Shown: positions 1,704-42,128 of the stretch, piece after piece
Position numbering within the stretch: position 1 is the first letter of the stretch
Layout: the number at the start of each line of letters is the position of its first letter
Assembly (NCBI GenBank): GCA_963791045.1
Contig: CAWBQK010000013.1
Coordinates: 1-64,000 of the forward strand
DNA length: 64,000 nt
Direction: 5' to 3'
Origin: Candidatus Latescibacterota bacterium
Lineage (GTDB): Bacteria > Krumholzibacteriota > Krumholzibacteriia > WVZY01
The notes under the pieces: model-generated
Seen by the model: only the letters and a program-made list of their open reading frames with translations
Told to the model about the DNA's origin: nothing
Databases searched by the model: none
Translations under genes and position numbers: made by a program

Positions 1704-1735
1704 AGATTGCCGAATCGTACCGAAGATTGCCGAAT
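1702..1735 (+). repeat. Direct repeat GAAGATTGCCGAAT x2, 20-bp period
   Basis: Exact 14-mers at 1702-1715 and 1722-1735, with a partial third copy (ATCGCCGAA) near 1739. Confidence 0.75.
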
Positions 1736-2021
1736 TACATCGCCGAACAACATAGCTATACTTTCGAGGTAATCGAAAGGTGATGCTATGTCAATCAATC
1801 GTTATTAACGCCGTATCAAGTGGCTTCCCGCCTCCAAGTTTCACCGCGACAAGTTCTCCAGTGGGCGCGAGACGGGTAATTCCCGAGATCAAGCTTTCAC
1901 CGAAAACTCGCCGCTATAACTGGGAGGCCGTTGTACTACATTGGGGCATCGAACCACGGAATGCAAGGTAGACCGATGAGTTCACCAGACGTGGACGTTA
2001 ACAATTCGACCGGTGATATAA

Positions 2022-2748: not shown

Positions 2749-2912
2749 ACAATCATCCGCCCCAATTAAATCAGTAGGTGGTTGAAAGGTAGTTGGAAGC
2801 ACCTTGGAACATTAAAACAATGAAGAAAAGAAAAAAGACAATCAAAAAAACCAAGGTTAAACAATGATCTGCGGAGTCGTTGGCAGATCCAGACTTGTAA
2901 CCAAACAACTCG

Positions 2913-3318
2913 TTGACTTTTGAGGAATCGCCAGAGGCACAGATGACAAAAAAGATGTGTATTGCCCAGCCCACGAAAAAAATTGATTCTGAGAGCCCAT
3001 CCGCTGAGTTGATGAAGCATAGCACGGATGATACATCACCGGCATTGGGAAACCTAACCGGTCTACACTCGTTTAGTATCGTTGCTGAATTAGGCAAACT
3101 CGGCGGTGGCACTATAGTCACCCAGAAATGGCTCGCGGACCACGTTGGATGCAATCCCATATCTATTAAGCGAGCCGTGGACCGAGGTGAACTCCCACCT
3201 CCCGTCAAAATGTTCGGCAAACCCACCTGGACTGTTGGCAGCAATAGTGCGCCATGTGGAGCATCGACTTAAGCTGGCTGCCGAAGAGGCAAAAATCCTC
3301 GCTCAACAAAGAATTTGA
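2913..3318 (+). CDS. AlpA/excisionase-like helix-turn-helix protein (probable frameshift near 3240)
   Basis: QKWLADHVGCNPISIKRAVDRGELPPPVKMFGKPTW resembles the AlpA/MerR-type winged HTH. It lies just upstream of the integrase. Start codon uncertain. Confidence 0.6.
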
Positions 3319-3561
3319 CTTATAGGACATCATAAAGTCAACCTAGCCGGTATGGTTAAAGCGATCCGGAAGCGCAAGTCATCGCAGACGAGTTTAGTAC
3401 CGGCCGACCGACCTACCCAAAGGAAAGGCTCGATGCTGAACGGGGTGCGTAGTTCGTCTTCAATGCCAACGGAGACTAACAAGATTGAACCAATCGGGCC
3501 AGAAAGTGGCGGTATACCGTCGCTCGTTATATTCGAAATCGAATCCTGGAGGATTAGTGTT

Positions 3562-4871
3562 ATGGCTGGAGCCCGAAAGAAACCGCGTGGCAAGGATGGC
3601 GTTTACCAGGGCTATTACGTCGATTGGACTGGTAAAAGGCGAACCTTCCGTGGAACGACCGACCGAAAAGACACAATAGCCCTCGCTCGGAAGCTCGAAG
3701 ATGACGACCGTCAAATCGCGTTGGGTTATCGATCGCCTCCAAAGGCCTCCGACGCTCCACGCCGATTTTTCGAGACAGCTGCCGAATACTGTCAATGGGG
3801 CGAAGCCAAGGCGGACGGGGCGGCAGACCATGGGGGGCGAAACACGCCAGGGAACGTCGCAGCAAGCTCGCGTGGTGGGGAAAACAATTAGGTCTCGCCA
3901 TGGTCGCGGACCTCTTGGAAAGCCTTCCCGTGTGGAAAAGGCTCTCCGAGAACCTGGCGGAAACACGAGCCGGTAAGACGGTGGCGAACTACGCCGAAAC
4001 GCTCGCGGCATTCTGCGATTGGTGCGTCACGCGCGGGATACTATGGATTCCGATCCTCTCGCCGCGCTCCAAGGATTCGACACGTACGCCGAAGACAGAA
4101 CGTCGCGCGCTAACAGAGGATGAAATCGATCGTCTTCTAACTCACTGCCGAACGGAATATCGGCTCTTGTATGAAACCGCGCTGGCTTCGGGACTCCGAG
4201 CCAATGAGTTGCGGAATCTCCAATCGCGCAATTTGGATTTGAATCGAGTCGGGGTTAATTTTTAGACGCTGAGTGGACTAAGAGCCGAAAACCGGCCTTT
4301 CAACCAATTCCTGGTGTTCTAGCCCGTCGATTGCACGAATCAGCCCTCAAAGGAGAAGCCCGCGAACTATACTGCCAAGGGCCGCATCTCGACGCCGAAG
4401 GTCTGCGGAAAGATGCCGTGCCGGTTGATCCGCTACTATACGTACCTTCTCATCCCGCATTCACGAACTGTATACGGACTTGAGCGCTGGCAGACGTTTC
4501 GCGATGGACGCCCGAGGGCAAAGTTGATTTCCATGCGTTGCGGACCAGCTTTTGTACTTCGGTGATCGAGACAAGGTGCAAACCTCAAGGAAGCCATGAC
4601 ACTCATGCGCCACTCTACTCCCGACATCACCGCCAACACCTACGCACGAACCCACCCCGACCGAATGAATCAATTGGCCGAAAAGATCGGTCAGCGGTTG
4701 AAATCGAACCAAAGTTGTGTCAGTAGCGTGTCAGAGGCGGTAGTAGGCGCTGAAGAATCCGTCGCCAACGCCAGTGAAGGCAAAAGGATAAGTGACGAAG
4801 AAGAATGGTGGAGGCGGCGGGAATCGAACCCGCGTCCGAAGACAGATCCATGCAAGCGTCTACGTGTGTAG
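3562..4871 (+). pseudogene. Tyrosine recombinase/integrase with several frameshifts
   Basis: GGAGG RBS precedes ATG 3562. Catalytic motifs are spread across frames: LASGLRANEL (R), DFHALRTSF (HxxR), LMRHS...ITANTY (H, Y). Confidence 0.85.
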
Positions 4872-5159
4872 TCCGTGGATTTAATCCCGTCCTCCGTTGC
4901 TCCCCACAGACAGGATCATCGAAGGACCCACCCCTAAGTTTCGCCGGGAACGCCGAGGCACTCAAACCCGACTATTCTCCAGAATATGACGCCCACTCAC
5001 CGGCCCTGGAGACCCAACCGGCGGGGACGAGCCACTATTTAAGCAGCCAGTGCGACTGGTTCGTCAACACTTCTTTGTTTGCCACAGTTTTAACGAGCTC
5101 ATGACAATCTCGACACGCAGCTTACACTCCACTATCCCCGTCGAACCCAAATCGCCCCC
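4806..5159 (-). ncRNA. ssrA: tmRNA (transfer-messenger RNA)
   Basis: 5' end GGGGGCGATTTGGGTTCGACGGGG and 3' end GGACGCGGGTTCGATTCCCGCCGCCTCCACCA, 354 nt. The tag reading frame ends ...EPVALAA-stop (5039-5068). Confidence 0.96.
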
Positions 5160-6091: not shown

Positions 6092-7240
6092 ATGCCGCGC
6101 CAATCGCTCACCAAATTGTCCGATAACGCTCTTCTCTCTCGTCTTCAAAACTCGTCACCCACGAAAAGCAAACCACACTCTCTATACTAGAGCACCTCGC
6201 CGAGGTCGACCGGCGCGATCTTTATCTTGCCTATGGATTCAGTTCCCTCTTTGATTATTGTGTCGGCGCACTCGGGTATTCGCGGTCGGCGGCGGGCAGA
6301 CGGATCGCCTCGGCCCGTTGTATTCGTCGTTACCCCGAAGTGTTCGATCTTCTCGAGTCGGGCAAGGTCAACCTGTGCACAGTCGGTCTCGTCGCCCCGA
6401 TACTCAATGACGAGAACAAGGACCTGCTCCTCCGCGAGATCCGCGGCAAGACAAAGCAGCAGGTCGAGTCGATCGTATCCAGGTACAAACCACCCATCGC
6501 CTACCGCGATAGGGTGCGTCCCGTGCGTGTAGCCGTCCCTCAACCGAGGCAAAACACCCAGAATCGCCGTAACCCGTTGATTTTTAACTCCCACTGCGGG
6601 ACTAGCAATCGAACAAATTGCGGGATAGTTGATTCTGGCGGGAGCCTGGGGTCGAGCCCGAGGAGCAAGGAGACAACGAGCGCATGCCCCGCGCCGGGGG
6701 CGCCTGGCGGGAATGAACAGGGCATACGGTGCAGTGCCGCACGAATCGAAAAACGGTTACTGATTCAGTTTCTTGCCGGACGAAGAATTCATGGCCAAAC
6801 TCGAGGAAGTCAAGTCCCTGCTCTCGAACAAGATACCGAACGGCACATTCGAAGACGTGTTCGAAACGATGATGGACGAATTCATCGACCGTCACAGCCC
6901 CAAGAAACGAGAAGAGCGCAGAATGAAGAAAAACAAACAAGCCCCATCGACAAAACAGACAACAGAGAAGAGCGCGACCGACAAACAGACTCGCCACATC
7001 CCCGCCACGACACGCGACAAAGTCTATGTCCGCGACAACGCGCGATGCACGTATGTCGGCAATAATGGAAAACGGTGCAATTCCACACACAACTTGCAAA
7101 TCGATCACATAAAGCCTGTCGCGCGAGGCGGACCAAACACGCTTTCGAATCTTCGCTTGTTATGCGGCAAGCACAACCGGCTCGAGGCAAAAAGAGTGTT
7201 GGGGGAAAAAACAGTTGAACGATACAGCAGAAGAGAGTGA
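6092..7240 (+). CDS. HNH endonuclease with DUF222-like helical N-terminus (frameshifts near 6148 and 6775)
   Basis: LSDNALL...HLAEVDRRDLYLAYGFSSLFDYC...AAGRRIASAR at the N-terminus; RCTY...RCNSTHNLQIDHIKPVARGGPNTLSNLRLLCGKHN at the C-terminus. GGAGG RBS. Paralogous to 54960-56301. Confidence 0.85.
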
Positions 7241-7279
7241 TCCTACACACCGAACGAGACACCTGACCCACAAGCGGCG

Positions 7280-8176
7280 CTACTTCACAAGAAGCGTAGA
7301 GTGAAAAACACCGCCACCGGAGACATCAACGACATCGACGTCATACTGCCCTGGTTCGAGCGATCCGGGCGCGAGAAAGAGACACAAAGAATAGTTCTCG
7401 CTGAAAACCCGTCCGGTGACGGACCTTTCCCAAACAAGGTCAGTCCCCGCCTGAACGAGACGAACCGTGTACATATCATTGGGCACAGGCGGCGCACCCA
7501 GACCCGTAAGTTCGAGCAAGAGAAACTGCGCCTCGTCCGCCTCAAAACTCGCCGCCTCAAAAGTCGATTCCCCACCGCGCATGGCGCCCATCTCGTCGGA
7601 AACGATCGTCACGCCACCAAGCACGCCTCTCGAATCGCCATCAAAATCCCCACGATCCGGACGGGTCATTAGCAACCCGACGGCAACAACCGCGATCACG
7701 AGATAAACGGCCGCAGCCGCCGGCCTCAACGCGGCGCCTAAAAAGATTTCCCACCATCGCCGTCCATACACATCTTCACGGACAGACCGATGGGATACCT
7801 GTCGGGAGCGCGATTCAACCCCATCCTCAACGGACGCCGTCCGCTCAACAGTCTCGAGCATTTCGATTTCGTCCTGGCACTCGCGGCAGATTTCGAGATG
7901 CTTCTCGATACCCTTCCGCACTGAAGAGTCCATGGCAGCCCGGTTTTCTACGAAATCAACTAACGCCGCAGCGTCAGGATGGGCGGGAAACTCTTCAACC
8001 AGGATCGACTTGAATTCGGAGGCAAAGCCAAGGAGTTCGGCGCACGCCTCGCACTTCGCCACATGGGCCTCGACCTTCTGATTTTCCAAAGAGGTCAACG
8101 AACCCGTGGGCATCCAAACAAGAAGCTCCTGAATAACCCCACACTCGCCGTCTTGTGATATATTGCCACCGCTCAC
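7280..8176 (-). CDS. Membrane anti-sigma factor with two zf-HC2 (ZAS) motifs, one TM helix and an extracytoplasmic beta-rich domain
   Basis: HVAKCEAC and HLEICREC motifs; hydrophobic AAAAVYLVIAVVAVGLLM; directly downstream of the ECF sigma gene. Confidence 0.8.
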   Translation of the reverse strand: MSGGNISQDGECGVIQELLVWMPTGSLTSLENQKVEAHVAKCEACAELLGFASEFKSILVEEFPAHPDAAALVDFVENRAAMDSSVRKGIEKHLEICRECQDEIEMLETVERTASVEDGVESRSRQVSHRSVREDVYGRRWWEIFLGAALRPAAAAVYLVIAVVAVGLLMTRPDRGDFDGDSRGVLGGVTIVSDEMGAMRGGESTFEAASFEADEAQFLLLELTGLGAPPVPNDMYTVRLVQAGTDLVWERSVTGRVFSENYSLCLFLAPGSLEPGQYDVDVVDVSGGGVFHSTLLVK

Positions 8177-8246
8177 TTGGTTCTCCCCGAATAAATCGAG
8201 CCATCAACGACCCGCAACCGTTCCACGATATTCTTACGGACGCCCA

Positions 8247-8879
8247 TCACGGCGCTTGCATCAGCGCACGCGCGCCTTTCAAACATCGGAACAATTTGAC
8301 GCGCGCAGCCTCTTCCGAGATCCCCAGCCGTTTGCCGATTTCTTTTCTGCTGTAACCCTGAACGTACGCAAACAGGAGCATTTCACGGCAGCCCTGATTC
8401 AACTGCGACAGCACCCGGTTCAAATCGGCCCGGCGTTCGATTTCGCCGCCCGTCGAACGCGGCGACACAGGGTCAGCGCTGACGTCGAGCGACACGTGTT
8501 CGCCCCTGTTCTTGATTTTTCTGTAACTTGTAATACACATGTTTTTTGTAATGCGACGGACATACGCGCGAAGGTCTCCGCCTTTGAAACGTCCGTCTCT
8601 CAGATTCTGGACGACGGCGAGAAGTGTCGCCTGGACGATATCCTCGGATGTCTCGAACCCCCACACACGGTGCGCGGCGACGGATTTCGCCCAACCCGCC
8701 ACCAGGCGAACGTCTTCGGGCCGTCCCTGGAGAAAACCCTGGACGACAAGATCGGATTGGTCGGCGGAGGGATCATGAGCGCGGCCGGGATCGGGCAACT
8801 CCGATCGGTCCGGCGATTGGCTCACTCCCTCATCTGTTGCGTCTTTACGGTCTTCGGAAACCAAATGCTGCTCTCCCAT
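8247..8879 (-). CDS. ECF RNA polymerase sigma-70 factor
   Basis: Region 2 (SEDIVQATLL...YVRRITKNMCITSYRK) and region 4 (GYSRKEIGKRLGISEEAARVKLFRC). Confidence 0.92.
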   Translation of the reverse strand: MGEQHLVSEDRKDATDEGVSQSPDRSELPDPGRAHDPSADQSDLVVQGFLQGRPEDVRLVAGWAKSVAAHRVWGFETSEDIVQATLLAVVQNLRDGRFKGGDLRAYVRRITKNMCITSYRKIKNRGEHVSLDVSADPVSPRSTGGEIERRADLNRVLSQLNQGCREMLLFAYVQGYSRKEIGKRLGISEEAARVKLFRCLKGARALMQAP

Positions 8880-9008
8880 TCTCTGTTAAGAGAATGGTAC
8901 TCCTTCGTTTCCCGAGACGTCAAGGCGCCCGCTTCCCAATCGCCCTCTCCTCACCCAGCCGATTCAAAACCCGGGGCCCCCATGAGCACCACCCAACCCA
9001 ATGATTCC

Positions 9009-9034
9009 ATCGTACAGACGATCAAAACGTTACA
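9009..9034 (-). promoter_or_regulatory. Putative ECF promoter for the sigma/anti-sigma operon (TGTAAC-N16-CGAT)
   Basis: Minus strand reads TGTAACGTTTT-gatcgtctgta-CGAT, the same motif and spacing as 12154-12179. Confidence 0.7.
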
Positions 9035-9048
9035 CATGGGTTGACAGG

Positions 9049-9077
9049 TTGATTCACCCCGAACTTGGGTATATGCT
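9049..9077 (+). promoter_or_regulatory. Putative sigma70 promoter of the CHAT gene
   Basis: TTGATT-N17-TATGCT ending 10 nt before GTG 9087. Confidence 0.45.
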
Positions 9078-9086
9078 TACTGTGTT

Positions 9087-12000
9087 GTGGAATCAGTACT
9101 TTGGAAGACTTTCGGAATCGCCGTGATCGTCACTCTGTGCCTCCTCCTCGTCACAAGCGCCGGTGGCATCGACGGACGTTCTGAAGGCGATGACGACGCG
9201 GCGGATCTCATCGAGCTTGCCCGGACGCGGATCGAGCAAGACCGCCTCGAAGAGGCGGACGACCTGCTCGTCGTAGCGTTACGCGACATAGAAGCAGATT
9301 CGACTGGAGATGAAAATCTTCTGGCGGATATCTGTGTCTACCGCGCAAGGATTGCGACAAGCCTCGGCAACTCCAACGACGCCCGCCCACTGTTTGAAAA
9401 AAGCCTGTCGATAAAAACACGTTACTGGGGAGTCGATCATCCCGAATGCGTTCCGGCGATCACCGGCATCGCGACACTGGAGCTGATCGCCGGAGATTTC
9501 ATAGAAGCGGAGCAACTCTTCGAGCGCGGTCTCTCTATTCTGATTCCCAGGCTCGACCCGCTCCATGAATGGATCGTGGAAGCGGCCATCGGGCTTGCCG
9601 AGAGCCAGGGATACCGGAACGACTATGCCGCCGCCGAATTGACACTCCGGCCGAGTCTCGATGCGTTAACGATGCGGGGCGGCAACACCGACGGGCGATC
9701 GGTGCGCTTGATGCTTGCCCTGGCCGAAGCGCTTTCGATGCAGGGGAAAGATGTCGAATCAACTCTTCTGTTCCGAAAGGCCTATTTGATCGCAGAGGAA
9801 GTCTACGGACTCAATCATACGACCACGGCAAGGGCGCTCGCCGGCCTCGCGCACACGTACCGGCGCTCGGGAACAGTAATGGAAACCCGCGCCCTTTACA
9901 GGCAGTGCGTCCAGATCGTCGAATCACGCCACGGCGCGCTCCATCCGGATCTCGTCCACTACCGGTCTCGTCTTGGGATGTCGCTCTTCGAAGGGGATCG
10001 CTGGTCCACCGAAGCCGTCGCTTCGATCGAGCGCGCGATCTTTGACGCGGAGGAACTGTACGGACCTGAAAGCTATCAGGCGGCCCTCGAAGAACGCCAG
10101 CTCGGTCTCGTGATGATGGGTCGGTACGAGTGGCCGGAAGCCGCCGATGTCTTTGCCTCGTGCATCCCGAATCTCGAACGTTATTTCGGCGCCAACCATC
10201 CCTTTCTCAGCAAGAGCCTCAAGGGAATGGCGTGGTCGCTTCTTCATCTGAATCAGCCCGACGACGCCCTGTATTATGTGGATCGCGCCGTATCGCTCCA
10301 TGAAAAATCGCCGACCTTCGACGCATTCGAGCTGTCATTTATCCTCGGCATGAAAGCGACCATCGAAATCGACGCACATTCTTACGACGCGGCGTTGCGC
10401 TCGTCAAGACGCGCCGTCGAGTTGGCGATCAACGTCCAGGAAAATAATCTCAAGATCTCATCGACCCGCGAAGCGGTCTTGTATGCCACACGCCCGTGGG
10501 CGACGGCACAGGCGCTGGTCGCGGCGGCCGTGGCTCACCCGAGTTTGACCGACGCGGACTGGGGAACCGTCTTTGCACTCGTCGCAAAATCCCATGGAAG
10601 CGTTCTCGACTGGCAGGCCGAGCGCCACCGGTTCATTCAATCGATCGGCGGAACAGCCGGGCCGAACGCCGCGGCAAAAACCGCGGCGCAGGACCTATCG
10701 GATTTGACTCTTAACGGCCCGGGCCCCGACACGACGACGTATTACGGTCAGCTCGCAGCCGCGCGGCGAAGAGTCGAAGAGGCCGAACGTGAGTTGTCGG
10801 CGGCCACCGAGGAATGGCGGGCCGCGAGCGAATACGCCGACATATACCACAGAATCTCGCGGGAATCGCTTTCCGACGCCTTGCCCCCCGGGACCACCCT
10901 TGTGCATTTTCTGACATTCACAAAAATCGTCGACTCGCCGTCAAACACGCCATCCTGGCGGGAACCGCACTACGCGGCGTTTCGTTTGTCGAAATACGAT
11001 GAGAATGTCGAGGAACTCGATTTCGTCGACCTGGGCAAGGCAGTGTCGATCGACTCGCTCATCGGCGTCTACAGACAAGCCGTCGACGAAATCCGCTCCC
11101 CCCAACGACCGTCCGCGCGGGAAGAAGCCGAATACAGGCAGTCCGCGCGCACACTCCATGATCGAATATGGTCACCGCTCTTCCCGGATTCTGCGAGCGA
11201 CCCGAACCGGGCCGAGACGGACGCAGCGCCACTTGTGCTAATCATACCCGACGCGGGACTCCACCGCGTCGACTTCAACACGCTCCTCTCCCCTTCCAGC
11301 GAACTCGTCATCGAGAAGTACAAGACCCACCTGCTATCGTCGAGCGCCGACCTGTTGCGGTCACCGCCAAACAACGGCATCGGACGAAACATGTTGGCCG
11401 CGGGCAACCCGGCCCCAACGGTAAATGGTTCATTGAATCTAACGGAGAACAGCCACGATACACATCCAAACAGGGTCAACTGCGTCGACGAATCCGTTTT
11501 CTCCGTCGTTCTTCCCGGCGCCGAACTCGAAACAAAAAACGTCGCGCTGATTTTTGAAAAAGAATCGGGGGAGTCGACATACGTCCTGACCGGCACCGGT
11601 GCGACCGAAACCCGAATCAAGCAGAATATCGAATCAAAACGAATCGTCCACCTCGCGGCCCACGGTTTTGTCTGCGGAGGGAACGACAACCGGCCGCGAT
11701 TCATCGCAACGGACCCGCTCGATCCGCTCCTCATGTCGGGCCTCGTCTTCTCGCCGGTCGACGGCGTGGACGACGGACTCTTGACTTCCCGTGAGGTCGC
11801 CTGTCTCGACCTATGCGGCGTGGAACTGGTCGTTTTGAGCGCCTGTGGGTCCGGGCTCGGAGAAATTGTCTGGGGCGAGGGGATGTTCGGGCTCCGCCGT
11901 GCGTTCGAGATCGCCGGCGCGCGAACGGTCATGATGGCACTTTGGCGGCTCGACGACACAGGCGCCCGCCTTCTGATGGAAGAATTCTACAAACGCAAAC

Positions 12001-12131
12001 TCGCCGGCGCGTCAACACTGGACGCAATCCACGAAGCCCAGATCGAGAGACTCGCCGACGTTCGCCGCCGCCTCAACCGATTTCACCCAGCTCTTTGGGG
12101 CGGGATCGTCACCGAGGGCGACTGGCGATAG
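9087..12131 (+). CDS. Exported TPR-CHAT (caspase-like, clan CD) protease
   Basis: N-terminal hydrophobic signal/anchor FGIAVIVTLCLLLV; TPR-like GxxHP repeats; CHAT motifs IIPDAGLHRVDF, IVHLAAHG (His), VVLSACGSG (Cys), AGARTVMMALW, HPALWGG. Confidence 0.92.
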   Translation: MESVLWKTFGIAVIVTLCLLLVTSAGGIDGRSEGDDDAADLIELARTRIEQDRLEEADDLLVVALRDIEADSTGDENLLADICVYRARIATSLGNSNDARPLFEKSLSIKTRYWGVDHPECVPAITGIATLELIAGDFIEAEQLFERGLSILIPRLDPLHEWIVEAAIGLAESQGYRNDYAAAELTLRPSLDALTMRGGNTDGRSVRLMLALAEALSMQGKDVESTLLFRKAYLIAEEVYGLNHTTTARALAGLAHTYRRSGTVMETRALYRQCVQIVESRHGALHPDLVHYRSRLGMSLFEGDRWSTEAVASIERAIFDAEELYGPESYQAALEERQLGLVMMGRYEWPEAADVFASCIPNLERYFGANHPFLSKSLKGMAWSLLHLNQPDDALYYVDRAVSLHEKSPTFDAFELSFILGMKATIEIDAHSYDAALRSSRRAVELAINVQENNLKISSTREAVLYATRPWATAQALVAAAVAHPSLTDADWGTVFALVAKSHGSVLDWQAERHRFIQSIGGTAGPNAAAKTAAQDLSDLTLNGPGPDTTTYYGQLAAARRRVEEAERELSAATEEWRAASEYADIYHRISRESLSDALPPGTTLVHFLTFTKIVDSPSNTPSWREPHYAAFRLSKYDENVEELDFVDLGKAVSIDSLIGVYRQAVDEIRSPQRPSAREEAEYRQSARTLHDRIWSPLFPDSASDPNRAETDAAPLVLIIPDAGLHRVDFNTLLSPSSELVIEKYKTHLLSSSADLLRSPPNNGIGRNMLAAGNPAPTVNGSLNLTENSHDTHPNRVNCVDESVFSVVLPGAELETKNVALIFEKESGESTYVLTGTGATETRIKQNIESKRIVHLAAHGFVCGGNDNRPRFIATDPLDPLLMSGLVFSPVDGVDDGLLTSREVACLDLCGVELVVLSACGSGLGEIVWGEGMFGLRRAFEIAGARTVMMALWRLDDTGARLLMEEFYKRKLAGASTLDAIHEAQIERLADVRRRLNRFHPALWGGIVTEGDWR

Positions 12132-12153
12132 CACCCCAAATCAATAACTCTCC

Positions 12154-12179
12154 TGTAACGTTTTCCCGCACCATGCGAT
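12154..12179 (+). promoter_or_regulatory. Putative ECF promoter of the secreted FG-GAP protein gene
   Basis: TGTAACGTTTT-cccgcaccatg-CGAT, about 115 nt upstream of ATG 12295. Confidence 0.7.
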
Positions 12180-12294
12180 CTCCATTATAGACCCCAATCG
12201 ATTCCGCATCTGTTGGCAACCGGCGCCCCGGTCTCGGGAAACCCATTTCGTTGCGGCGCGGCGAGCGGGCCGTAGCTTTACCGAGGAGAAAGAC

Positions 12295-15200
12295 ATGAGA
12301 GCGACATTCGTCCTTTTGGCAATGGCCTGCACGTTGTTGGCCCCAATGACGGGAAACGCCGTCAAGGTAGTGGTCGACGCAAATGAAGATGCTTACGTTT
12401 TGAGTTCTACTCCGACGACCCTGTACGGAGGGGCCACGACACTGCTCGTCAAGCACACCGAACCCCCTTCAGAGACAATGGCCAGGGCGTTCCTGCAATT
12501 CGACTTGTCGTCGATTCCAGCCGATGCATCAATCCAGGTCGCGCTCCTGTACATGTACGATCAAACCGCCGGGGGCGGAAGCAATCTCAATATCTACCCC
12601 GTCGATACCATATGGTCGGAAGCCACCGTCAACTGGGATAACCAGCCGTCTTACGATCCCGTGGCCGCGGGTATTCTGCTCGGTTACACATACACAGGTT
12701 GGTACAACGCCGACGTGACCGGCCTTGTCAATGAGTGGCGGGATGGGCTTCGCTCGAACCACGGACTTCTCGTAAAAGAAGGCGGTTATTTTTGCCCGGT
12801 GACACTTCCCGCGTGCGGCCCCCGCACATTCAGGAGCAGCGAGTACTCCGGCTTCAAGCCCTATTTGATGGTTATATACGACTCTCCCACCGTCGACCTT
12901 CCGGCTGATATGGATGCGCACGTGAGGGAGTCCTCGGACACTACCAATTACGGTTTGAGCGAAACGCTGAATATTGGTGACAAGGGTTGCCGGAGCTATC
13001 TTGGGTTCAACACAGCGGGCATCCCGGCCGGCGCCACGATCGAATACGCCAGAATTCGACTGTACCATTTCGCCTACTCGGGAGGGTTTCCAGGGGCAAC
13101 GGGGTTTATGACGAGCGCCTTCCGCGTCACTGAGTCGTGGTCGGAGGAAACCATCAACTGGTCGAACAAGCCATCCCACGCCACAACGCCGGAATCTATC
13201 AATGTGAACAATATCGGTGGAATCTACGTCGGATGGGCCAATTTTGACGTGACGTCTTTGGTCGAAGACTGGGTTGGCGGAGAAACAAATCACGGCGTAG
13301 TAGTCCGTGAGGCCGTGACATCCAGCTTCGCCAGCCAGACGGGATTCATGCGCAGCGATGAATACGCCGACCCCGATTACAAGCCCCGAATTGAAGTGTT
13401 TTACTCGTTCGCGCCGCAAAACGAATTTGCGCCGGACCAGTATCTCACCGGCGTATCCATGGGCGACGACTGTTGGGGCGACATTGACGGCGACGGCGAC
13501 CTCGACCTTGTCGTTTGCGGCGACGACGGCGGCGGCCCCCTCACCAGTCTCTTCATCAATCACCTGGGGACCCTGACGGAAAGCTACACCCACCCGTTCC
13601 CGGATATTCGAGGTGCGGCGAGCACCGGCAATCTCGACTTCGGAGACTATGACAACGACGGCGACCTCGACCTGGCGCTCGCAGGCGAGGGCTCAGGTGG
13701 TCCCGTGACGGAGATTTATAAAAATAACGGCGCCGGAACGTTTACCCTCGACACCCGTCAGTCATTGACGCCGGTCAAATACGCATCGCTCGACTGGGGT
13801 GACTACGACAATGACGGGGACCTCGACCTCTATGTCCAGGGGCACAACGGCACCGTTTCGTTGTCGAGTGTGTACGAAAACGATGGCACGGGGCTTCTCT
13901 CCGGAACCGCGGCGGCATTGACTCCCCTTTGCGCGGGGTCCGCCGACTGGGTAGATTTCGATGGCGACACCGATCTGGACCTGGCTGTTACCGGCTCCGA
14001 CCTCGTCGCCCGTCACACCATATTCTACGAAAACGACAACTCGGCGTTGACACCGTTGGGCAACAAGGGACTCCCCGATGTGGCCTACTCGGACATGGCG
14101 TGGGGAGACTTCGACAGCGATGGCGACCTCGATCTCGCATTTATGGGACAGGTGATGGCGCCCGGCGGCGAATATACTCGAGTCTACCAAAACGACGGAG
14201 GGGGCGGACTCTCGCTCGCCTGGGACGTTGACAACCTTCGTCTCGGCGAGTGCGCCTGGGGTGATTTCTCGAATGACGGCAAACTCGATGTCATCTTCTG
14301 CGGCGACCACGCCATTCTCGGTCCCTTGACGGAAATCTTCTACAACGACGGCACCAACAACTTCTCCGGGCTTGCCACACCCCTCGTCACGGGTGTCCAA
14401 CGGGCGTCGGCAAGCTGGGCCGATGTCGACAGCGATGGCGATCTCGATCTCTTCATGACCGGAGAGGATATCACGACTGCGAAATACGCCGTCCTTTACG
14501 AAAACACCGGCGGCCCCGCCAACACACAGCCAGAACCGCCGACCGAATTCGAGACCTCTCGTCTGCCCGGTTTTTCACCGCTTCTGCCGGACACACTCAT
14601 AATGAGATGGGACGGAGCAAATGACGAGGAAACCGCTGAGAGGGGATTCTATTATTGTGTCCGCGTCGGCCATGGCTGGAAAGGCGATGACATTTACTCG
14701 GGCACATATGGTTCACCGCTTATGGGAAACGTCCAGGGAGCCAACGAGCTCAGAGTCGCCATCCCGCCCGTCGAGCCCGACGACCACTTCTATTGGAGCG
14801 TTAAAACGATCGATGCGGGATTGATGGCTTCCGAGTGGTCAACGCAACAATGCAGCTGGAAACCGGACAGCCTGTGGTGGAATATCGACACGTGCAACGA
14901 CGACGCCTACGTCGATAACGGGCTCCCCAACAACACCTATGGAGTGACCGAAGCCATAAACTTGATTGTCGGCGACCAGGGCTATTCGAGCAGAATAGCC
15001 CGCTCGTACTTGCAATTCAACAAACCCACATCCCTCGATCCTGGAGCGGAGATCGCCAAAGTGGAATTGTACGTGCACTGTCGAAGTATCATCTCACCGC
15101 CATACTATGTCGAAGCCCGGCGTGAGAACGACGACACTTGGGACGAAAACACGATCACGTGGAATAACGCTCCCACAGCGTTCCACCCGTACGCCGACGA

Positions 15201-15708
15201 TGCCGTACGCGTAACTCCGGGGTGGTGCGTGTGGGACGTCACGTCGAGTGTCAACGCCACCGTGGACGGCGTCATCACGTTCGTTCTTCGGGGCGCCACA
15301 CCACCCGAAGGAACACTAGGAGTTCAAGCCGAGTTCGACAGCAAGGAGACGGCAAACGCACCCTATCTCAAGACTCATTACATGACCGTTGTCGGAATCG
15401 GTGACGACGCACCGGAGCCGGACCGATTTGCGCTCTCGCAAAACGTGCCCAATCCATTCAACCCGACTACGCGCATCAGCTTCACGATTCCGAACGGTTC
15501 GGGACCTGAACACGTAACCCTGAAGATTTACGATGTGTCAGGAAGGCTCGTGCAAACACTGTCTGACGAACCCAGGGGGGGCGGTCTCCATACGATCGAA
15601 TGGAACGGAAAGGACCGCCAAGGCTCACCCGTCGCCAGCGGCGTGTATTTCTACAGGCTTCGGTGGAATGAAAACGTCGAATCAAAAAAGATGGTGCTCT
15701 TGCGTTAG
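12295..15708 (+). CDS. Secreted protein with three DNRLRE/CBM96-like domains, an FG-GAP/VCBS beta-propeller and a C-terminal FlgD-Ig domain
   Basis: Signal peptide; three DAYV/DAHV...YG...WxExT[VI][NT]W modules; seven [WF][GVA]DxxxDGxLD repeats; ends QNVPNPFNPTTRI...SGVYFYRL...KKMVLLR. Confidence 0.9.
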   Translation: MRATFVLLAMACTLLAPMTGNAVKVVVDANEDAYVLSSTPTTLYGGATTLLVKHTEPPSETMARAFLQFDLSSIPADASIQVALLYMYDQTAGGGSNLNIYPVDTIWSEATVNWDNQPSYDPVAAGILLGYTYTGWYNADVTGLVNEWRDGLRSNHGLLVKEGGYFCPVTLPACGPRTFRSSEYSGFKPYLMVIYDSPTVDLPADMDAHVRESSDTTNYGLSETLNIGDKGCRSYLGFNTAGIPAGATIEYARIRLYHFAYSGGFPGATGFMTSAFRVTESWSEETINWSNKPSHATTPESINVNNIGGIYVGWANFDVTSLVEDWVGGETNHGVVVREAVTSSFASQTGFMRSDEYADPDYKPRIEVFYSFAPQNEFAPDQYLTGVSMGDDCWGDIDGDGDLDLVVCGDDGGGPLTSLFINHLGTLTESYTHPFPDIRGAASTGNLDFGDYDNDGDLDLALAGEGSGGPVTEIYKNNGAGTFTLDTRQSLTPVKYASLDWGDYDNDGDLDLYVQGHNGTVSLSSVYENDGTGLLSGTAAALTPLCAGSADWVDFDGDTDLDLAVTGSDLVARHTIFYENDNSALTPLGNKGLPDVAYSDMAWGDFDSDGDLDLAFMGQVMAPGGEYTRVYQNDGGGGLSLAWDVDNLRLGECAWGDFSNDGKLDVIFCGDHAILGPLTEIFYNDGTNNFSGLATPLVTGVQRASASWADVDSDGDLDLFMTGEDITTAKYAVLYENTGGPANTQPEPPTEFETSRLPGFSPLLPDTLIMRWDGANDEETAERGFYYCVRVGHGWKGDDIYSGTYGSPLMGNVQGANELRVAIPPVEPDDHFYWSVKTIDAGLMASEWSTQQCSWKPDSLWWNIDTCNDDAYVDNGLPNNTYGVTEAINLIVGDQGYSSRIARSYLQFNKPTSLDPGAEIAKVELYVHCRSIISPPYYVEARRENDDTWDENTITWNNAPTAFHPYADDAVRVTPGWCVWDVTSSVNATVDGVITFVLRGATPPEGTLGVQAEFDSKETANAPYLKTHYMTVVGIGDDAPEPDRFALSQNVPNPFNPTTRISFTIPNGSGPEHVTLKIYDVSGRLVQTLSDEPRGGGLHTIEWNGKDRQGSPVASGVYFYRLRWNENVESKKMVLLR

Positions 15709-15873
15709 AAATTTCCTCAGGCGGTGCTAGCAGGGGGGAGAAAGAAGCCCGGGACATGCGTGTCCCGGGCTTCTCCATTTGGGCTCCGGCACATGCGCCG
15801 GCCAGGCCAGGCCGCGCCCCAGAGTGACTTTCTCACGAACGACGTCGACAGGCCGTTAGCCTGGCGGCGCTAT

Positions 15874-15912
15874 ACGCAAGAAGGCCCGGTCTCAGACCGG
15901 GCCTTCTTGCGT
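15874..15912. terminator. Perfect 18-bp hairpin between convergent transcripts
   Basis: ACGCAAGAAGGCCCGGTC-tca-GACCGGGCCTTCTTGCGT, immediately 3' of tRNA-Lys. A second hairpin lies at about 15745-15775. Confidence 0.7.
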
Positions 15913-15916
15913 GATG

Positions 15917-16066
<150 letters not shown>

Positions 16067-16176
16067 ATATTTGATTTCAAAGATAACGCCCGGTCACTAT
16101 AAACGTTCCACCAAAAAAAATCAAGGAGGAGCCAATACCCCGGCTCCCCCTTTTTTGCCCGAGTCCAGGCAATACT

Positions 16177-16614
16177 CTAGAACGGCAGATCGTCGTCGTC
16201 GCCGCCTCCGCCGCCACCAGCGCTCTGAGCGACATTCTCATCCGGCCCGAATTCCTGCGCCGGCACGTCTCCCGTTTCCCCAGCCCGACCCAACATCACC
16301 ATATTCGCGGCGATAACTTCGGTCGTGTACTTCTTGTTCCCCTGCTGATCATCCCACGAACGCGTCTGAAGACGACCCTCGATATAGACCTGCTTCCCTT
16401 TTTTTAGGTACTCACCACAGATCTCAGCGAGACGCGCCCACGCAACAACGCGGTGCCACTCGGTGCGTGTTTCCTTTTCACCACTCTTGTTGGTGAACTT
16501 CTCCGACGTGGCAATGTTGAAATTAGCGACGGCCGTTCCGCTCGGCGTATACCTGAGCTGTGGATCGGCGCCAAGATTTCCAACCAGGATGACCTTGTTT
16601 ACCCCACTCATCAC
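16177..16614 (-). CDS. ssb: Single-stranded DNA-binding protein
   Basis: [14 protein letters not shown]...TEWHRVV...EGRLQTRSW...DDDLPF. Confidence 0.98.
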
Positions 16615-16933: not shown

Positions 16934-19900
16934 ATGCGCTCTCGACACACAAGAACGCTTATTGGAGTCATCCTGGCGATGGTGCTGATCGTCCCCACGC
17001 TGGCGCTATCCCAGACCAAGCTCCTTCGATTCCCCGATATCCACGGGGATAAGGTCACGTTCTGCTACGCAGGTGACCTGTGGCTCGCCGACGCGACGGG
17101 CGGAACCGCCGTACGGCTGACTACACACCCGGGGCAGGAACTCTTCCCCAAATTTTCACCCGACGGCAAATGGATCGCTTTCACCGGTCAGTACGACGGT
17201 GACGAGCAGGTCTATATTATACCGACGGAGGGTGGGGTTCCGACCCAGCTTACATTTTACCCGGCGCTCGGGCCTCTACCTCCGCGTTGGGGTTATGACA
17301 ACCAGATCTACGGGTGGACCCGCGACGGTAACGCGGTTCTGTTCCGGTCGATGCGTTACGGCTTTGACCTGACCGACACCCGGCTCTTCACCGTGACCTT
17401 GAAGGGCGGACTCCCCGAGCCGCTGCCGATGCCCGTGTCGGGCGCCGGCGAGTTCTCCCCCGACGGGTCGAAAATGGTCTATTCCCCCCTCATTCGTGAT
17501 TTCCGAACATGGAAGCGCTATCAGGGTGGCTGGGCGCAGGATCTTTATACATTCGACCTGACGACATTCGAAGCGACGCAGGTCACCGATCACGACCGCT
17601 CGGACCGTGATCCGATGTGGATCGGCGACATGATTTACTTCTCGTCGGACCGTGACGGAAAACTCAACCTGTACTCGTTCAATCCCGCCACAAACGAGAC
17701 CGATCAGCTCACGAAAGAAAAAACCTACGACGTCCGCTGGCCGAGCGCCGGTGACGACGGCCGTATCGTTTATGAGTTGAACGGCGAGCTTCAGGTTTAT
17801 GATATCGCCACGGCGAAATCAGCTAAGATCTCGATTCTCGCCAACAACGACGGTGTCGCTATGCGGCCGACGCGGATTTCGGCAGCTCGCAATGTCGAGG
17901 CGTACGGACTAAGCCCCAAGGGCGAACGCGCCGTATTCGCCGCGCGCGGTGACATCTTTACCGCGCCGATCGAAAAAGGCGCCACGCGTAATCTTACCAA
18001 CTCGTCGCGTTATCACGACAAGTGGCCCGCGTGGTCTCCTGACGGGAAAAAGATCGCGTTTATCTCCGACCGCACCGGCGAGGAAGAAATCTATCTCGTC
18101 GACCAGGACGGCAAGGGCGAGATCGAGCAGCTCACCAACAACGGCAAGGAAATGCGGTACGCGCCCAAGTGGTCTCCATGCGGCAAGATGATCGCGTTCA
18201 CCGACAAAAACGGCAAAATCTGGGTGCTCGATGTCGCGACCAAGAAGTCCATCGAAGTCGCCAACGAAAAGAACAACTGGACGACCGACTACATGTGGTC
18301 GCCCAACGGCGGATATCTCACCTTCAGCATGGAAGACGAAACCGGCTTCGCTTCGATTTACATTTGGAGCGCCGGGGACAAAAAGCTCCACCGGATCACC
18401 GGGCCGTACTTCAACGAGTTCGAACCCGTGTGGGATCCCAGCGGCGACTATCTCTATTATATGAGTGATAGAGAGTTCGCACCCCAGATCGGATCGATCG
18501 AGTGGAACTATCTCGTCGATCGCGAGACGTATATCTACGCGCTTGCGCTCCGCAAAGACGTCAAGAACCCGTTCCCCTTCGAGAGCGACGAGGTAAAAAT
18601 CGACGAAGAAAAGAAAGACGGGGACAAGGACGACAAGAAGCCCGAGAAAGGCAAAGACGAAGACAAGGACAAGGACAAGGACGAGAAGAAAGACGAGAAA
18701 AAAGAGCCGATCAAGATCGACTTTGAAGGACTCGCCGACCGTGTCGCCCGCATTCCCGTGGACGCGGACAACTTCTATGGTCTCGAAGCCGTCGAAGGCA
18801 AGATCATCTACGTCGCCGGAAGCCCGTTCTACTACGGACGTGCGAGCGATGTAAAACGGACGATCAAAGTCTTCGAATTCGAAGATCGTAAAGAAAGCAC
18901 GATCGTCGAGGACGCCGGCGGATACGCGCTGTCAAACGATGGCAAGAAACTGCTCGCGCGCGTGAACGGCCAGTTCAAACTTTTCGACGCAAAGCCCAAG
19001 GGCGGAGACGCCAAGGCAGTGTCGACGAGCGGACTCATGGTCGACAGAGTTCCCGCCGACGAGTGGGCCGAGATCTTTGACGAGGTCTGGCGCCGCTTCC
19101 GTGATTTCTTCTATGCGGAGAACATGCACGGTTACAATTGGGAACAAATCGGCGACCGCTATCGCCCGCTTGTCGAGCATGTCGCACACCGCGCCGACCT
19201 CAACTATGTGCTCGGCGAAATGGTCGGAGAGCTCAACACATCGCACTCTTACATCCAGGGCGGCGACTACGAAGTTCCCGACAGACCGAGAGTCGCGCTT
19301 CTTGGAGCTCGCCTCGAACTGGACCCGAAGGAAAACCGGTACAAAGTTGTCGAGATCCTCAAGGGTCAAAACCAGGAGGACCGGTACCGCTCACCGATGA
19401 CAGAAATCGGTGTCGACATAAACGTGGGCGACTACATTCTCGCCATCGACGGTGTCGATCTTACCGGCGACGAGAACCCGTACCGGATGCTCCGCAACAA
19501 GGCGGACCGCCCCGTCGCGCTTCTCGTCAACTCTTCGGCGAAGAAGAAAGACGCACGCAACGTCACCTTCGAGCCGATCTCGAGTGAGCGGAGCCTCCGC
19601 TATCTCGAATGGGTCGTCGGCAACCGCGAGAAGGTCGCGAAGGCCACGGACGGGCGTGTCGGATACCTCCACGTACCCGACATGGGTTCCGACGGAATCC
19701 GTGAGTTCATCAAGTGGTACTACGGCCAGATCAAGATGGAAGGTCTTGTCATCGACGTCCGCGGAAATGGCGGCGGAAACGTATCGCAGATGCTCATCGA
19801 ACGACTGGGGCGCGAACTCCTCAGTCTCGACTACTCGCGCAACAGCGAATACGCGAGCCCGTATCCGAACTCCGTTTTCAACGGCCACCTCGTCTGTCTC

Positions 19901-20260
19901 TTGAGCGAGACGTCGGCATCGGACGGGGACATCTTCCCCGCGATGTTCCGCAAGGCGGGCCTTGGTCCGCTAATCGGCAAACGCTCATGGGGCGGCGTGA
20001 TAGGTATTTCGGGCCGCGGTCCATTAATTGACGGCGGCACGGTATATGTCCCCGAGTTCGGTTTCCTGAACACCGACGGTGAGTGGGATATCGAGAACTG
20101 GGGCGTCGATCCCGATATCGTGGTCGAGAACGATCCGAAATCGGTTATCGAAGGACGCGACCCGCAGCTTGAACGTGGGATCGAAGAGATCATGAAGATG
20201 ATCACCGAAGACCCAATCAAGATGCCGAAGCGTCCCGCCTATCCTGTGAAGACGAAGTAG
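16934..20260 (+). CDS. Tricorn protease homolog (S41 peptidase with beta-propellers and PDZ), exported
   Basis: PD40-like FSPDG repeats; GELNTSH; IDVRGNGGG; ASDGDIF; GKRSWGG; GVDPDI. Confidence 0.95.
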   Translation: MRSRHTRTLIGVILAMVLIVPTLALSQTKLLRFPDIHGDKVTFCYAGDLWLADATGGTAVRLTTHPGQELFPKFSPDGKWIAFTGQYDGDEQVYIIPTEGGVPTQLTFYPALGPLPPRWGYDNQIYGWTRDGNAVLFRSMRYGFDLTDTRLFTVTLKGGLPEPLPMPVSGAGEFSPDGSKMVYSPLIRDFRTWKRYQGGWAQDLYTFDLTTFEATQVTDHDRSDRDPMWIGDMIYFSSDRDGKLNLYSFNPATNETDQLTKEKTYDVRWPSAGDDGRIVYELNGELQVYDIATAKSAKISILANNDGVAMRPTRISAARNVEAYGLSPKGERAVFAARGDIFTAPIEKGATRNLTNSSRYHDKWPAWSPDGKKIAFISDRTGEEEIYLVDQDGKGEIEQLTNNGKEMRYAPKWSPCGKMIAFTDKNGKIWVLDVATKKSIEVANEKNNWTTDYMWSPNGGYLTFSMEDETGFASIYIWSAGDKKLHRITGPYFNEFEPVWDPSGDYLYYMSDREFAPQIGSIEWNYLVDRETYIYALALRKDVKNPFPFESDEVKIDEEKKDGDKDDKKPEKGKDEDKDKDKDEKKDEKKEPIKIDFEGLADRVARIPVDADNFYGLEAVEGKIIYVAGSPFYYGRASDVKRTIKVFEFEDRKESTIVEDAGGYALSNDGKKLLARVNGQFKLFDAKPKGGDAKAVSTSGLMVDRVPADEWAEIFDEVWRRFRDFFYAENMHGYNWEQIGDRYRPLVEHVAHRADLNYVLGEMVGELNTSHSYIQGGDYEVPDRPRVALLGARLELDPKENRYKVVEILKGQNQEDRYRSPMTEIGVDINVGDYILAIDGVDLTGDENPYRMLRNKADRPVALLVNSSAKKKDARNVTFEPISSERSLRYLEWVVGNREKVAKATDGRVGYLHVPDMGSDGIREFIKWYYGQIKMEGLVIDVRGNGGGNVSQMLIERLGRELLSLDYSRNSEYASPYPNSVFNGHLVCLLSETSASDGDIFPAMFRKAGLGPLIGKRSWGGVIGISGRGPLIDGGTVYVPEFGFLNTDGEWDIENWGVDPDIVVENDPKSVIEGRDPQLERGIEEIMKMITEDPIKMPKRPAYPVKTK

Positions 20261-42007: not shown

Positions 42008-42128
42008 ATATCCATAGCCTTGTCAACGATTTAGGGCAAAAGGCTTAAGAGAGTTGTGGGTCCGCCCGCCTGTCACGGCTCTCAATCGATTTCCGCATGC
42101 CCTGCGGAGGAAGAGACGCGAGGATACT

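Follow-up and report, generated by a model that had tools for sequence, protein, structure and literature searches.

A conserved module of an ECF sigma factor, a double-zinc-finger anti-sigma factor and an exported TPR-CHAT protein in Krumholzibacteriota and other phyla, a candidate split form of Myxococcus DdvA-DdvS

In the classical proteolysis of zinc-binding anti-sigma (ZAS) factors of extracytoplasmic function (ECF) sigma factors, as in the RseA-DegS-RseP and RsiW-PrsW-RasP pathways, a site-1 cut removes the ectodomain of the anti-sigma factor and a site-2 protease cuts in the membrane. Here we describe a locus encoding an ECF sigma factor, a membrane anti-sigma factor with two zinc-finger units and a caspase-like TPR-CHAT protein with a predicted export signal, found in a stretch of 64,000 nucleotides (positions 1 to 64,000 of contig CAWBQK010000013.1, assembly GCA_963791045.1; hereafter the window) from Candidatus Latescibacterota bacterium, a member of the Krumholzibacteriota in GTDB. 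A site-1 role for a periplasmic TPR-CHAT in cutting an anti-sigma factor was put forward in 2018 and 2024 for DdvA of Myxococcus, a single polypeptide in which a cytoplasmic three-helix anti-sigma domain with a CHCC zinc centre is followed by a transmembrane helix, a flexible linker and a periplasmic TPR-CHAT (PMC6061681, PMC11506125). In these reports, an unknown signal is proposed to make CHAT cut the linker in trans within a DdvA dimer, ahead of RseP; RseP-dependent degradation was shown for DdvA lacking TPR-CHAT, and the cut by CHAT itself is not demonstrated there (PMC6061681, PMC11506125). DdvA-like fusions are reported only in Myxococcota and one Comamonas (PMC11506125), and the structure of the DdvA-DdvS complex is available as 8ROT.

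Two other described systems bring a TPR-CHAT protein together with a sigma factor. In the type III-E craspase, which comprises Cas7-11 with the TPR-CHAT protein Csx29, Csx30 and CASP-sigma, Csx29 cleaves the sigma inhibitor and thereby frees an ECF-like sigma factor, and the TPR-CHAT fold and its catalytic dyad are common to Csx29 and the protein described here. Csx29 is a cytoplasmic protein that RNA activates and that binds Cas7-11, and the Csx30 that it cleaves is soluble and does not belong to the ZAS proteins (PMC10028731). The window, by contrast, contains no cas genes in its 64 kb, its CHAT protein carries a predicted export signal, and a membrane ZAS anti-sigma factor takes the place of the inhibitor. 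An earlier note on this DNA, made from the sequence alone, had pointed to Csx29; in structural searches Csx29 is a more distant analogue than DdvA. The second system, the ECF54 group, resembles the present locus in its conserved neighbourhood of an ECF sigma gene with TPR/CHAT genes and in the proposal of regulation by proteolysis. ECF54 is described as 100% actinobacterial, lacks an anti-sigma factor, has a predicted promoter of the form GTATCAG/CTCC and is found near TPR/CHAT, subtilase and carboxypeptidase-regulatory-like genes (PMC8999054, PMC7826278), whereas here an anti-sigma factor is present, the motif is GTAAC/CGAT and the relatives belong to Krumholzibacteriota, Eisenbacteria and Acidobacteriota.

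A full-text literature search on CHAT in combination with ECF, anti-sigma or intramembrane proteolysis returned the DdvA papers, work on the CRISPR craspase and CalpL, a review, and two papers that use the terms incidentally, and yielded no description of a split module composed of a sigma factor, a ZAS anti-sigma factor and an exported TPR-CHAT. CHAT goes unmentioned in the main text of the ECF re-classification, and groups that come later in its supplement may have CHAT in their context (PMC7826278). The idea put forward in the earlier note, that an extracytoplasmic CHAT makes the site-1 cut, had been proposed already for the fused DdvA; what lacked a prior description in our search is the split form.

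The four genes named in the earlier note are all present within positions 7280-15708. On the minus strand, the anti-sigma gene (7280-8176, 298 aa) lies 70 nt downstream of the sigma gene (8247-8879, 210 aa), and this operon diverges from the TPR-CHAT gene on the plus strand (9087-12131, 1014 aa), which is followed after 163 bp by a gene for a secreted DNRLRE/FG-GAP protein (12295-15708, plus strand, 1137 aa), the putative output of the regulon and referred to below as the cargo. Domain content, predicted topology, conserved linkage and a shared promoter motif were established from comparisons or read directly from the sequence. The three genes very likely work together. Whether they form a three-component extracytoplasmic signalling system that drives secreted cargo, as a split form of Myxococcus DdvA-DdvS, is a reading that we hold to be evenly balanced between right and wrong.

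The TPR-CHAT protein matches the CHAT family over residues 685-1011 (PF12770, E 1.3e-53, 182.8 bits against a cut-off of 24) and has several matches to TPR families in Pfam. H855 and H859 in the motif HLAAHG and C920 in the motif LSAC are invariant across 19 aligned relatives, so that the His/Cys dyad (H859 and C920) read as intact in the earlier note is indeed so, and the invariance of the dyad and its surrounding motifs indicates that catalysis is under selection. An AlphaFold2 model (predicted local distance difference test, pLDDT, 85.7; predicted TM-score, pTM, 0.84) places a helix at 2-24, a disordered segment at 23-35, a TPR superhelix from 38 to about 600, a beta unit at 603-651 and the CHAT domain at 652-1011. 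When this model was searched with Foldseek, DdvA ranked first (8rw5, E 3.7e-15; 8rot_A, E 7.6e-15), followed by human and yeast separase and by Csx29 (8eey_B, E 2.4e-13; Csx29 chains from 2e-13 to 1e-9). PDB searches by sequence with the whole protein or its profile were swamped by TPR proteins and were set aside.

Several features of the N-terminus point to export. A hydrophobic stretch at residues 4-22 follows a Lys and precedes an acidic segment; it is shared with the orthologues P0020-P0022, whose N-termini align to the GTG start at 9087, and this conservation supports the choice of that start, whereas the public gene call P0019 begins 12 codons later and would drop the n-region. The same segment occurs in the CHAT proteins of linked loci from relatives (numbered with the prefix L) that have complete N-termini, the exceptions being L038, where it lies in an upstream frame, and L010, where it is weak. 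The export signal proposed in the earlier note, or an anchor, is thus a conserved feature of the window protein and of its linked relatives, from which an extracytoplasmic location is predicted: the bulk of TPR-CHAT would lie outside the cytoplasm whether the signal is cleaved or retained as an anchor. In the contigs of three metagenome-assembled genomes (MAGs), the CHAT gene was found in two frames (L005 2805-5893, L038 9562-12676 and L030 9260-12527), which may reflect a frameshift or an assembly error.

The probable partner of this protein is a single-pass anti-sigma factor. Residues 25-46 match Pfam zf-HC2 (E 2e-7), a second HxxxCxxC motif occurs at 93-100, and a single hydrophobic span at 153-171 is followed by an ectodomain of about 125 aa. 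An AlphaFold2 model built from 24 aligned relatives (mean pLDDT 76) predicts tandem three-helix bundles, with helices at 10-62 and 69-120, then a disordered stretch at 122-153, a membrane helix at 152-171, a disordered tether at 171-184 and a beta-sandwich at 186-297. The putative zinc ligands form two ZAS-like units, C12/H38/C42/C45 and H66/H93/C97/C100. With two HxxxCxxC motifs and two tandem three-helix bundles, the protein deserves the label of double zinc finger given to it in the earlier note. The second unit has weak profile matches to ChrR and RslA (E about 0.1). The pair has the features of class I ZAS systems, namely a sigma factor with regions 2 and 4 only and a partner with H-x3-C-x2-C in an N-terminal helical domain.

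A profile of 24 members of this family, searched against 1.84 billion cluster representatives, gave 42,192 matches at E up to 0.001. By this measure the family comprises 353 proteins (50%-identity clusters) at E <=1e-30 and 4249 at <=1e-10, and the best 150 of the 42,192 matches are all 163-361 aa long, the matches extending over nearly the full length. Conservation was assessed on 143 representatives of at least 255 aa with pairwise identity of at most 50%. Both H38-x3-C42-x2-C45 and H93-x3-C97-x2-C100 are 99-100% conserved, and each of the seven putative ligands H38, C42, C45, H66, H93, C97 and C100 is kept in 142-143 of the 143. In the otherwise variable ectodomain, R200 is the sole residue to match the zinc ligands in conservation (141 of 143), followed by G276 (133 of 143) and G201 (103 of 143). 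The transmembrane helix is Ala-rich, with a conserved proline, P152, in 90 of the 143 representatives. The ectodomain has no match in Pfam, and an Atlas search with it returned unnamed clusters only. A fold search with the anti-sigma model gave generic Ig-like and cupredoxin-like sandwiches and phage connector proteins at low TM-scores and no functional lead.

The sigma factor matches Pfam Sigma70_r2 and r4_2 and NCBIfam TIGR02937 (E 2.3e-19), consistent with an ECF-type protein of regions 2 and 4 only, and the nearest solved structure is that of M. tuberculosis SigL (E 1.9e-6). Ahead of region 2 it carries an acidic, low-complexity extension of about 55 aa (8720-8879), which is of similar length in L001-L003 and absent in L005. 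It was not assignable to a numbered ECF group: further NCBIfam matches were all below threshold, and ECF231 and ECF120, with the similar -35 elements TGTAACCTT and TGTAACAAA, respectively, have other anti-sigma factors (PMC7826278).

Set beside DdvA-DdvS, the locus shows the same basic components. Both systems have an ECF sigma factor and a single-pass anti-sigma factor with an N-terminal zinc-binding three-helix domain, predicted in our case; the first zinc-finger unit is C-H-C-C in the close clade and the centre of DdvA is CHCC. In both, the TPR-CHAT retains its His/Cys dyad and lies in the periplasm, a location predicted here only from the N-terminal hydrophobic segment, and the proposed logic of CHAT as site-1 protease followed by RseP would be the same. 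The differences lie in how these parts are arranged. Anti-sigma factor and TPR-CHAT are encoded here by separate genes with their own promoters, and CHAT has its own export signal, so that a cut, if made, would have to be in trans, by one protein on another. Unlike DdvA, the anti-sigma factor combines a tandem pair of zinc-finger units with a beta-sandwich ectodomain of its own. The apparent output is a surface protein sorted by the type IX secretion system (T9SS), whereas that of DdvA is a CBASS/CRISPR island, and the split form is found in Krumholzibacteriota, Eisenbacteria, Acidobacteriota, Ignavibacteriota and Binatota.

The linkage of the three genes was followed in relatives by a CHAT-alignment scan with one genome per species, which gave 79 loci. 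Open reading frames (ORFs) were called in all of them and searched with profiles for the window's anti-sigma family, for ECF sigma factors (iterated) and for CHAT. Of the 79 loci, 28 gave no match but had a flank shorter than 3 kb on one side and were set aside, leaving 51 for assessment, and in 17 of these a same-family anti-sigma gene lies within 2 kb of the CHAT ORF. A sigma gene stands beside the anti-sigma gene in 16 of the 17, the contig of L027 ending after the anti-sigma gene. Twelve of the 51 loci have a sigma gene but not an anti-sigma gene of the window's family, and 22 have neither nearby. Two assignments called for a decision: L006 was counted among the latter, its CHAT ORF being a fragment and its anti-sigma-like ORF 5.3 kb away, and L030 was counted as linked, the first piece of its split CHAT gene starting 4 nt past the anti-sigma stop. 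The five closest loci, L001-L005 (35-44% identity), are all linked. Close homologues of the anti-sigma factor and CHAT were also found on contigs of equal size (12213, 308279), which suggests co-location. The linked loci are titled Eisenbacteria, Acidobacteriota, Ignavibacteriota, Binatota and Polarisedimenticolia.

The arrangement of the genes varies between these loci while the set of genes does not. The sigma/anti-sigma pair lies divergently upstream of CHAT in the window, L002, L005 and L008, convergently downstream in L001, L003, L004, L024, L041 and L027, and on a single strand with it, in either order, in L010, L011, L030, L007, L034 and L051; in L038 and L069 the sigma gene shares a strand with CHAT and the anti-sigma gene is divergent. 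A 4-nt overlap joins the anti-sigma and CHAT ORFs in L011 and, with the GTG at 9004 taken as the CHAT start, in L010 as well. A tree built with FastTree from a C-terminal stretch of 600 residues (70 rows, leaving out ORFs of less than 600 aa and the split L005 gene) joins the window and L001-L004 in a clade of 100% support in which all are linked, and in a second clade 7 of the 13 rows are linked loci.

These phyla are very rich in ECF sigma/anti-sigma pairs as well as in TPR-CHAT genes, so the adjacency of the two could be without functional meaning, a view that fits the 22 of 51 assessable loci with no sigma gene nearby. Yet a single anti-sigma family stands beside CHAT in 17 of the 51, in several phyla and at least four different gene orders, and the linked label is clustered on the tree, with 9 changes against 13.8 in shuffles and none of 500 shuffles as low, a result that indicates clustering but not a single origin. 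Sigma genes, moreover, number 26 in 368 kb within 3 kb of CHAT ORFs and 11 in 605 kb at 3-10 kb, a density of 0.071 against 0.018 per kb, or 3.9 times higher in the nearer range. Chance adjacency is therefore highly improbable and close to refuted; the trio is a genuine conserved module and not a chance neighbourhood. Conservation of this linkage in relatives and recurrence of the trio with varying secreted genes, both of which the earlier note had named as checks, were thus borne out: when the 18 linked neighbourhoods (17 loci and the window) were clustered, only the trio recurred in at least 3 of them, apart from T9SS-tail proteins in 6, and the cargo differed between loci.

A different partner was seen in 4 of the 12 loci with a sigma gene only. 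In L016 (6420-12376), L036 (5822-11239), L065 (2-5531) and L025 (4059-12538), a membrane Ser/Thr kinase with a Pkinase domain, a transmembrane helix and a DUF4384 ectodomain is encoded between or beside sigma and CHAT, and in L036 all three of these genes lie on the same strand and abut or overlap. A relationship between the anti-sigma ectodomain and the DUF4384 ectodomain of the kinase was rejected (hhalign probability 0.2%). These loci suggest that exported TPR-CHATs are coupled to more than one type of transmembrane signalling partner in these phyla.

The cargo protein of the window contains three DNRLRE/CBM96 domains (E 1e-84 and 3e-75) and an FG-GAP/VCBS repeat region. The secreted FG-GAP/DNRLRE protein of 1137 aa described in the earlier note is confirmed, and to it we add a T9SS C-terminal sorting domain which the note did not mention (TIGR04183, residues 1052-1134, 36 bits against a cut-off of 23). 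Together with a signal-like hydrophobic segment at residues 5-23, this tail gives the protein the sequence features of a type A cargo of the T9SS. Directly after its stop codon lies a strong hairpin (15743-15774, plus strand; -34.8 kcal/mol over 15730-15790, z -3.75), the probable end of the transcript, which a simple terminator scan missed because its T-run is weak. A scan of 7000-16200 for sigma-70 promoter and terminator consensus gave 6 promoter-like matches where 3.0 were expected and 12 terminator-like matches where 10.0 were expected, nothing beyond chance.

The usual architecture of ECF promoters is AAC, 16 nt and CGA. Reading both intergenic regions of the window gave a 26-nt pattern of this kind, TGTAACGTTTT-N11-CGAT, which occurs once at 9009-9034 on the minus strand, facing the sigma/anti-sigma operon and ending about 130 nt upstream of the sigma ATG, and once at 12154-12179 on the plus strand, starting 23 nt past the CHAT stop and ending about 115 nt upstream of the cargo ATG. 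With up to 2 mismatches allowed, the pattern matches nowhere else in the 64 kb; the expected number of matches is 0.16. A relaxed form, GTAAC-N16/17-CGAT, was searched for in relatives: it has no match in 67 of the 79 loci but is found upstream of sigma, on the sigma strand, in all five of the closest (L001 14651, L002 1751, L003 5276, L004 14584 and L005 2710). Second copies stand in L001 at 18775, before genes for a 183-aa T9SS-tail protein and a 762-aa protein; in L004 at 17664, before a pair homologous to that of L001; in L005 at 6011, before a 2641-aa beta-helix/Ig protein with a FlgD-Ig tail; and in L003, where the copy reads off the contig end. A near-match, TGTAAC-N16-CTAT, precedes a pair in L002 homologous to that of L001. 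In total there were 9 matches in the 79.5 kb of L001-L005 and 9 in the 1132 kb of the other 74 loci. No copy was found before CHAT in the window or in L001-L005, nor an exact copy before the window's three other large Por_Secre_tail proteins.

Since the motif stands before sigma and cargo genes and not before CHAT, it suggests that sigma acts on its own operon and on an adjacent gene, variable between lineages, whose product is a secreted surface protein, with expression of CHAT independent of it, as would be expected of an upstream sensor. From this pattern, autoregulation is very probable and control of the cargo gene by sigma is likely; the induction of the downstream secreted protein foreseen in the earlier note is accordingly supported, in the window as well as in close relatives. 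The two-gene units of L001 (18803-21646), L004 (14728-17660) and L002 (4951-6959) encode a T9SS-tail protein of 175-208 aa and a secreted protein of about 760 aa that has no Pfam match and no homologue in the window; preceded by the ECF-type motif, or by the near-match in L002, they replace the DNRLRE/FG-GAP gene of the window. Two further matches in the window were set aside: one to the relaxed motif at 17328-17352, inside the tricorn gene described below, was judged to be chance, about 1 match being expected per window, and a looser one, GGAACGTTTA-N11-CGTT, with 2 mismatches at 16080-16110 on the minus strand, about 85 nt upstream of tRNA-Lys (15917-15992, minus strand), is probably chance as well.

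The distribution of the motif also bears on an alternative in which CHAT is not a sensor but an output. It would then be a protease of the periplasm or cell surface that acts on T9SS cargo or on foreign proteins, by maturation, trimming or degradation, and lies beside sigma and anti-sigma only through a shared regulon. Such a role would fit the T9SS-tail proteins near the trio in 6 of the 18 linked neighbourhoods, and in the one-strand operons of L010, L011 and L030 CHAT would be co-transcribed with sigma and hence autoregulated. However, the motif is lacking before CHAT in the window and L001-L005 and present before sigma and cargo genes, and the trio stays constant while the cargo changes, from DNRLRE/FG-GAP to the 2641-aa beta-helix/Ig protein, the tail protein with its 760-aa partner or a subtilase, or while no T9SS tail is near; in the linked loci of Acidobacteriota and Binatota no T9SS-tail neighbour was seen. 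We therefore consider an output role quite unlikely.

At the centre of the proposed mechanism stands Cys-dependent cleavage of the anti-sigma factor by CHAT, and for CHAT as the protease our confidence is evenly divided. In the AlphaFold2 model, the near-invariant R200, followed by G201, falls in a low-confidence loop (pLDDT below 50) that joins strands one and two of the ectodomain. In its sequence conservation and modelled position, this Arg-Gly in a flexible, exposed loop of a variable ectodomain resembles a protease recognition site and is a candidate for one. Members of clan CD such as separase, metacaspases and gingipain R cut after Arg. That the CHAT cut falls at R200 itself we put forward tentatively, as a rather doubtful proposal, and R200 may equally serve a structural or ligand-binding purpose instead.

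S41 tail-specific proteases act as site-1 proteases of other anti-sigma factors. CHAT might accordingly be a periplasmic co-sensor or partner of the anti-sigma factor and not its protease, altering its susceptibility to another site-1 protease of the S41/Prc or DegS type, or CHAT might cleave a third protein whose fragment signals. The conserved linkage fits any physical partnership and is not specific to cleavage, and a gene for a secreted tricorn/S41 protease lies at 16934-20260, 1.2 kb past the cargo gene. This gene is not a recurrent neighbour (fewer than 3 of the 18 linked neighbourhoods) and was dropped as a candidate for the alternative site-1 protease. The invariance of the His/Cys dyad and its motifs in 19 of 19 aligned relatives, indicative of selection on catalysis, and the near-invariant Arg in a flexible ectodomain loop, as expected of a protease substrate, both speak against a mere co-sensor, which we regard as rather unlikely.

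Several observations tell against cleavage by CHAT, or against the likeness to DdvA-DdvS on which the proposal leans. First, the H862A and C907A variants of DdvA behave like wild type in unstimulated cells (PMC6061681, PMC11506125), a result that also fits the co-sensor alternative. Second, no fused anti-sigma/CHAT form was present among the best 150 of the 42,192 profile matches, and a search for longer members of the family, which is weak evidence, found none either. Third, the whole-chain TM-scores from Foldseek are low (0.22-0.45), as is to be expected of long flexible repeat proteins, and the best PDB sequence match of the CHAT domain alone, 8rot_B (DdvA), is marginal (E 0.011). Fourth, linkage is far from universal, with neither partner gene near CHAT in the 22 loci noted above and at least 9 changes of the linked state required on the tree. 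Lastly, the motif statistic for the window is post hoc, because the pattern was derived from the same two sites, and only the recurrence in L001-L005 is independent of it.

Taken as a split form of DdvA-DdvS, the module would operate as follows. At rest, the double-zinc-finger anti-sigma factor would span the inner membrane and hold the ECF sigma factor in the cytoplasm, while TPR-CHAT, made from its own promoter and exported, would reside in the periplasm either in soluble form or anchored through its signal sequence. The TPR superhelix would bind a signal, probably a protein or a ligand at the surface, upon which the His859/Cys920 site would become active and CHAT would cut the anti-sigma factor outside the membrane, the candidate sites being the tether at 172-185 and the Arg200-Gly201 loop. 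The trimmed anti-sigma factor would then be removed by a site-2 protease and cytoplasmic proteases, and the freed sigma factor would transcribe, from GTAAC-N16/17-CGAT promoters, both the operon that encodes it and the neighbouring gene, whose product would be a glycan-binding surface protein sorted by the T9SS. The domain annotation of the 64-kb window shows no site-2 protease gene. This scheme retains the two-cut logic of classical regulated intramembrane proteolysis; it differs in its proposed site-1 enzyme, which belongs not to the serine proteases or metalloproteases but to the caspase-like cysteine proteases of clan CD, is TPR-gated and is encoded together with its substrate. The mechanism suggested in the earlier note is partly supported, by the predicted export, the conserved linkage, the promoter link, DdvA as the nearest fold and the candidate scissile loop. 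In its most far-reaching version, the free periplasmic TPR-CHAT would be the dedicated, ligand-gated site-1 protease of the double-zinc-finger anti-sigma factor, cutting after the Arg of R200-G201 in a widespread and undescribed pathway; we regard this as doubtful.

The remainder of the window is ordinary chromosome, with genes for ssb, a tRNA synthetase, RNase PH, Ham1, glutamate racemase, SmpB, a TRAP transporter and T9SS-tail proteins. A domain search of its 45 other ORFs, in which CRISPR arrays and repeats were not searched for, found no cas, CBASS or other recognised defence genes, and PADLOC gave no match for the five proteins of the module region, leaving a reading of the locus as a defence system unsupported; the independence from CRISPR stated in the earlier note agrees with both results. 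The tricorn-like S41 protease past the cargo gene (plus strand) has PD40 propellers, a PDZ domain and a low-complexity insert rich in Lys, Asp and Glu at about residues 553-592. Three further large FlgD-Ig/Por_Secre_tail proteins are encoded at 22207-24453 (minus strand), 38146-40899 (minus strand) and 42054-44792 (plus strand), one with LVIVD repeats, one with a beta-helix and one without other domain matches. Two ORFs with HNH endonuclease domains lie on the plus strand at 6773-7240 and 55672-56301, the first converging on the end of the anti-sigma gene. At one end of the window, a tmRNA gene (4806-5159, minus strand; Rfam 180.8 bits) adjoins a stretch of lower GC content (1-4800, 0.50-0.53 against about 0.57) that contains a DNA methylase fragment and ORFs without Pfam match and may be an island integrated at ssrA; a second tmRNA call by ARAGORN at 4256-4899 had no match in Rfam.

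A site-1 role for a periplasmic caspase-like TPR-CHAT has been proposed for DdvA only, and there it is hard to test, since the enzyme is part of the same polypeptide as its substrate and the activating signal is not known. The split version offers a cleaner test, since enzyme and substrate are separate proteins. It takes such systems beyond the Myxococcota into several little-studied phyla and ties them to the control of T9SS-sorted surface proteins instead of phage defence; it also defines a sizeable, uncharacterised family of anti-sigma factors with tandem zinc fingers, and the candidate promoter motif allows regulons to be predicted in MAGs. If the proposed cleavage is true, CHAT would be the first trans-acting clan CD protease in regulated intramembrane proteolysis, and the apparent wiring of the same kind of protease to membrane kinases suggests that, in FCB-group bacteria and Acidobacteriota, exported TPR-CHATs may serve generally as inputs to transmembrane signalling. 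The module is of interest chiefly for the study of ECF signalling and of bacterial caspase-like proteases, as it makes the hypothesis formulated for DdvA testable in trans.

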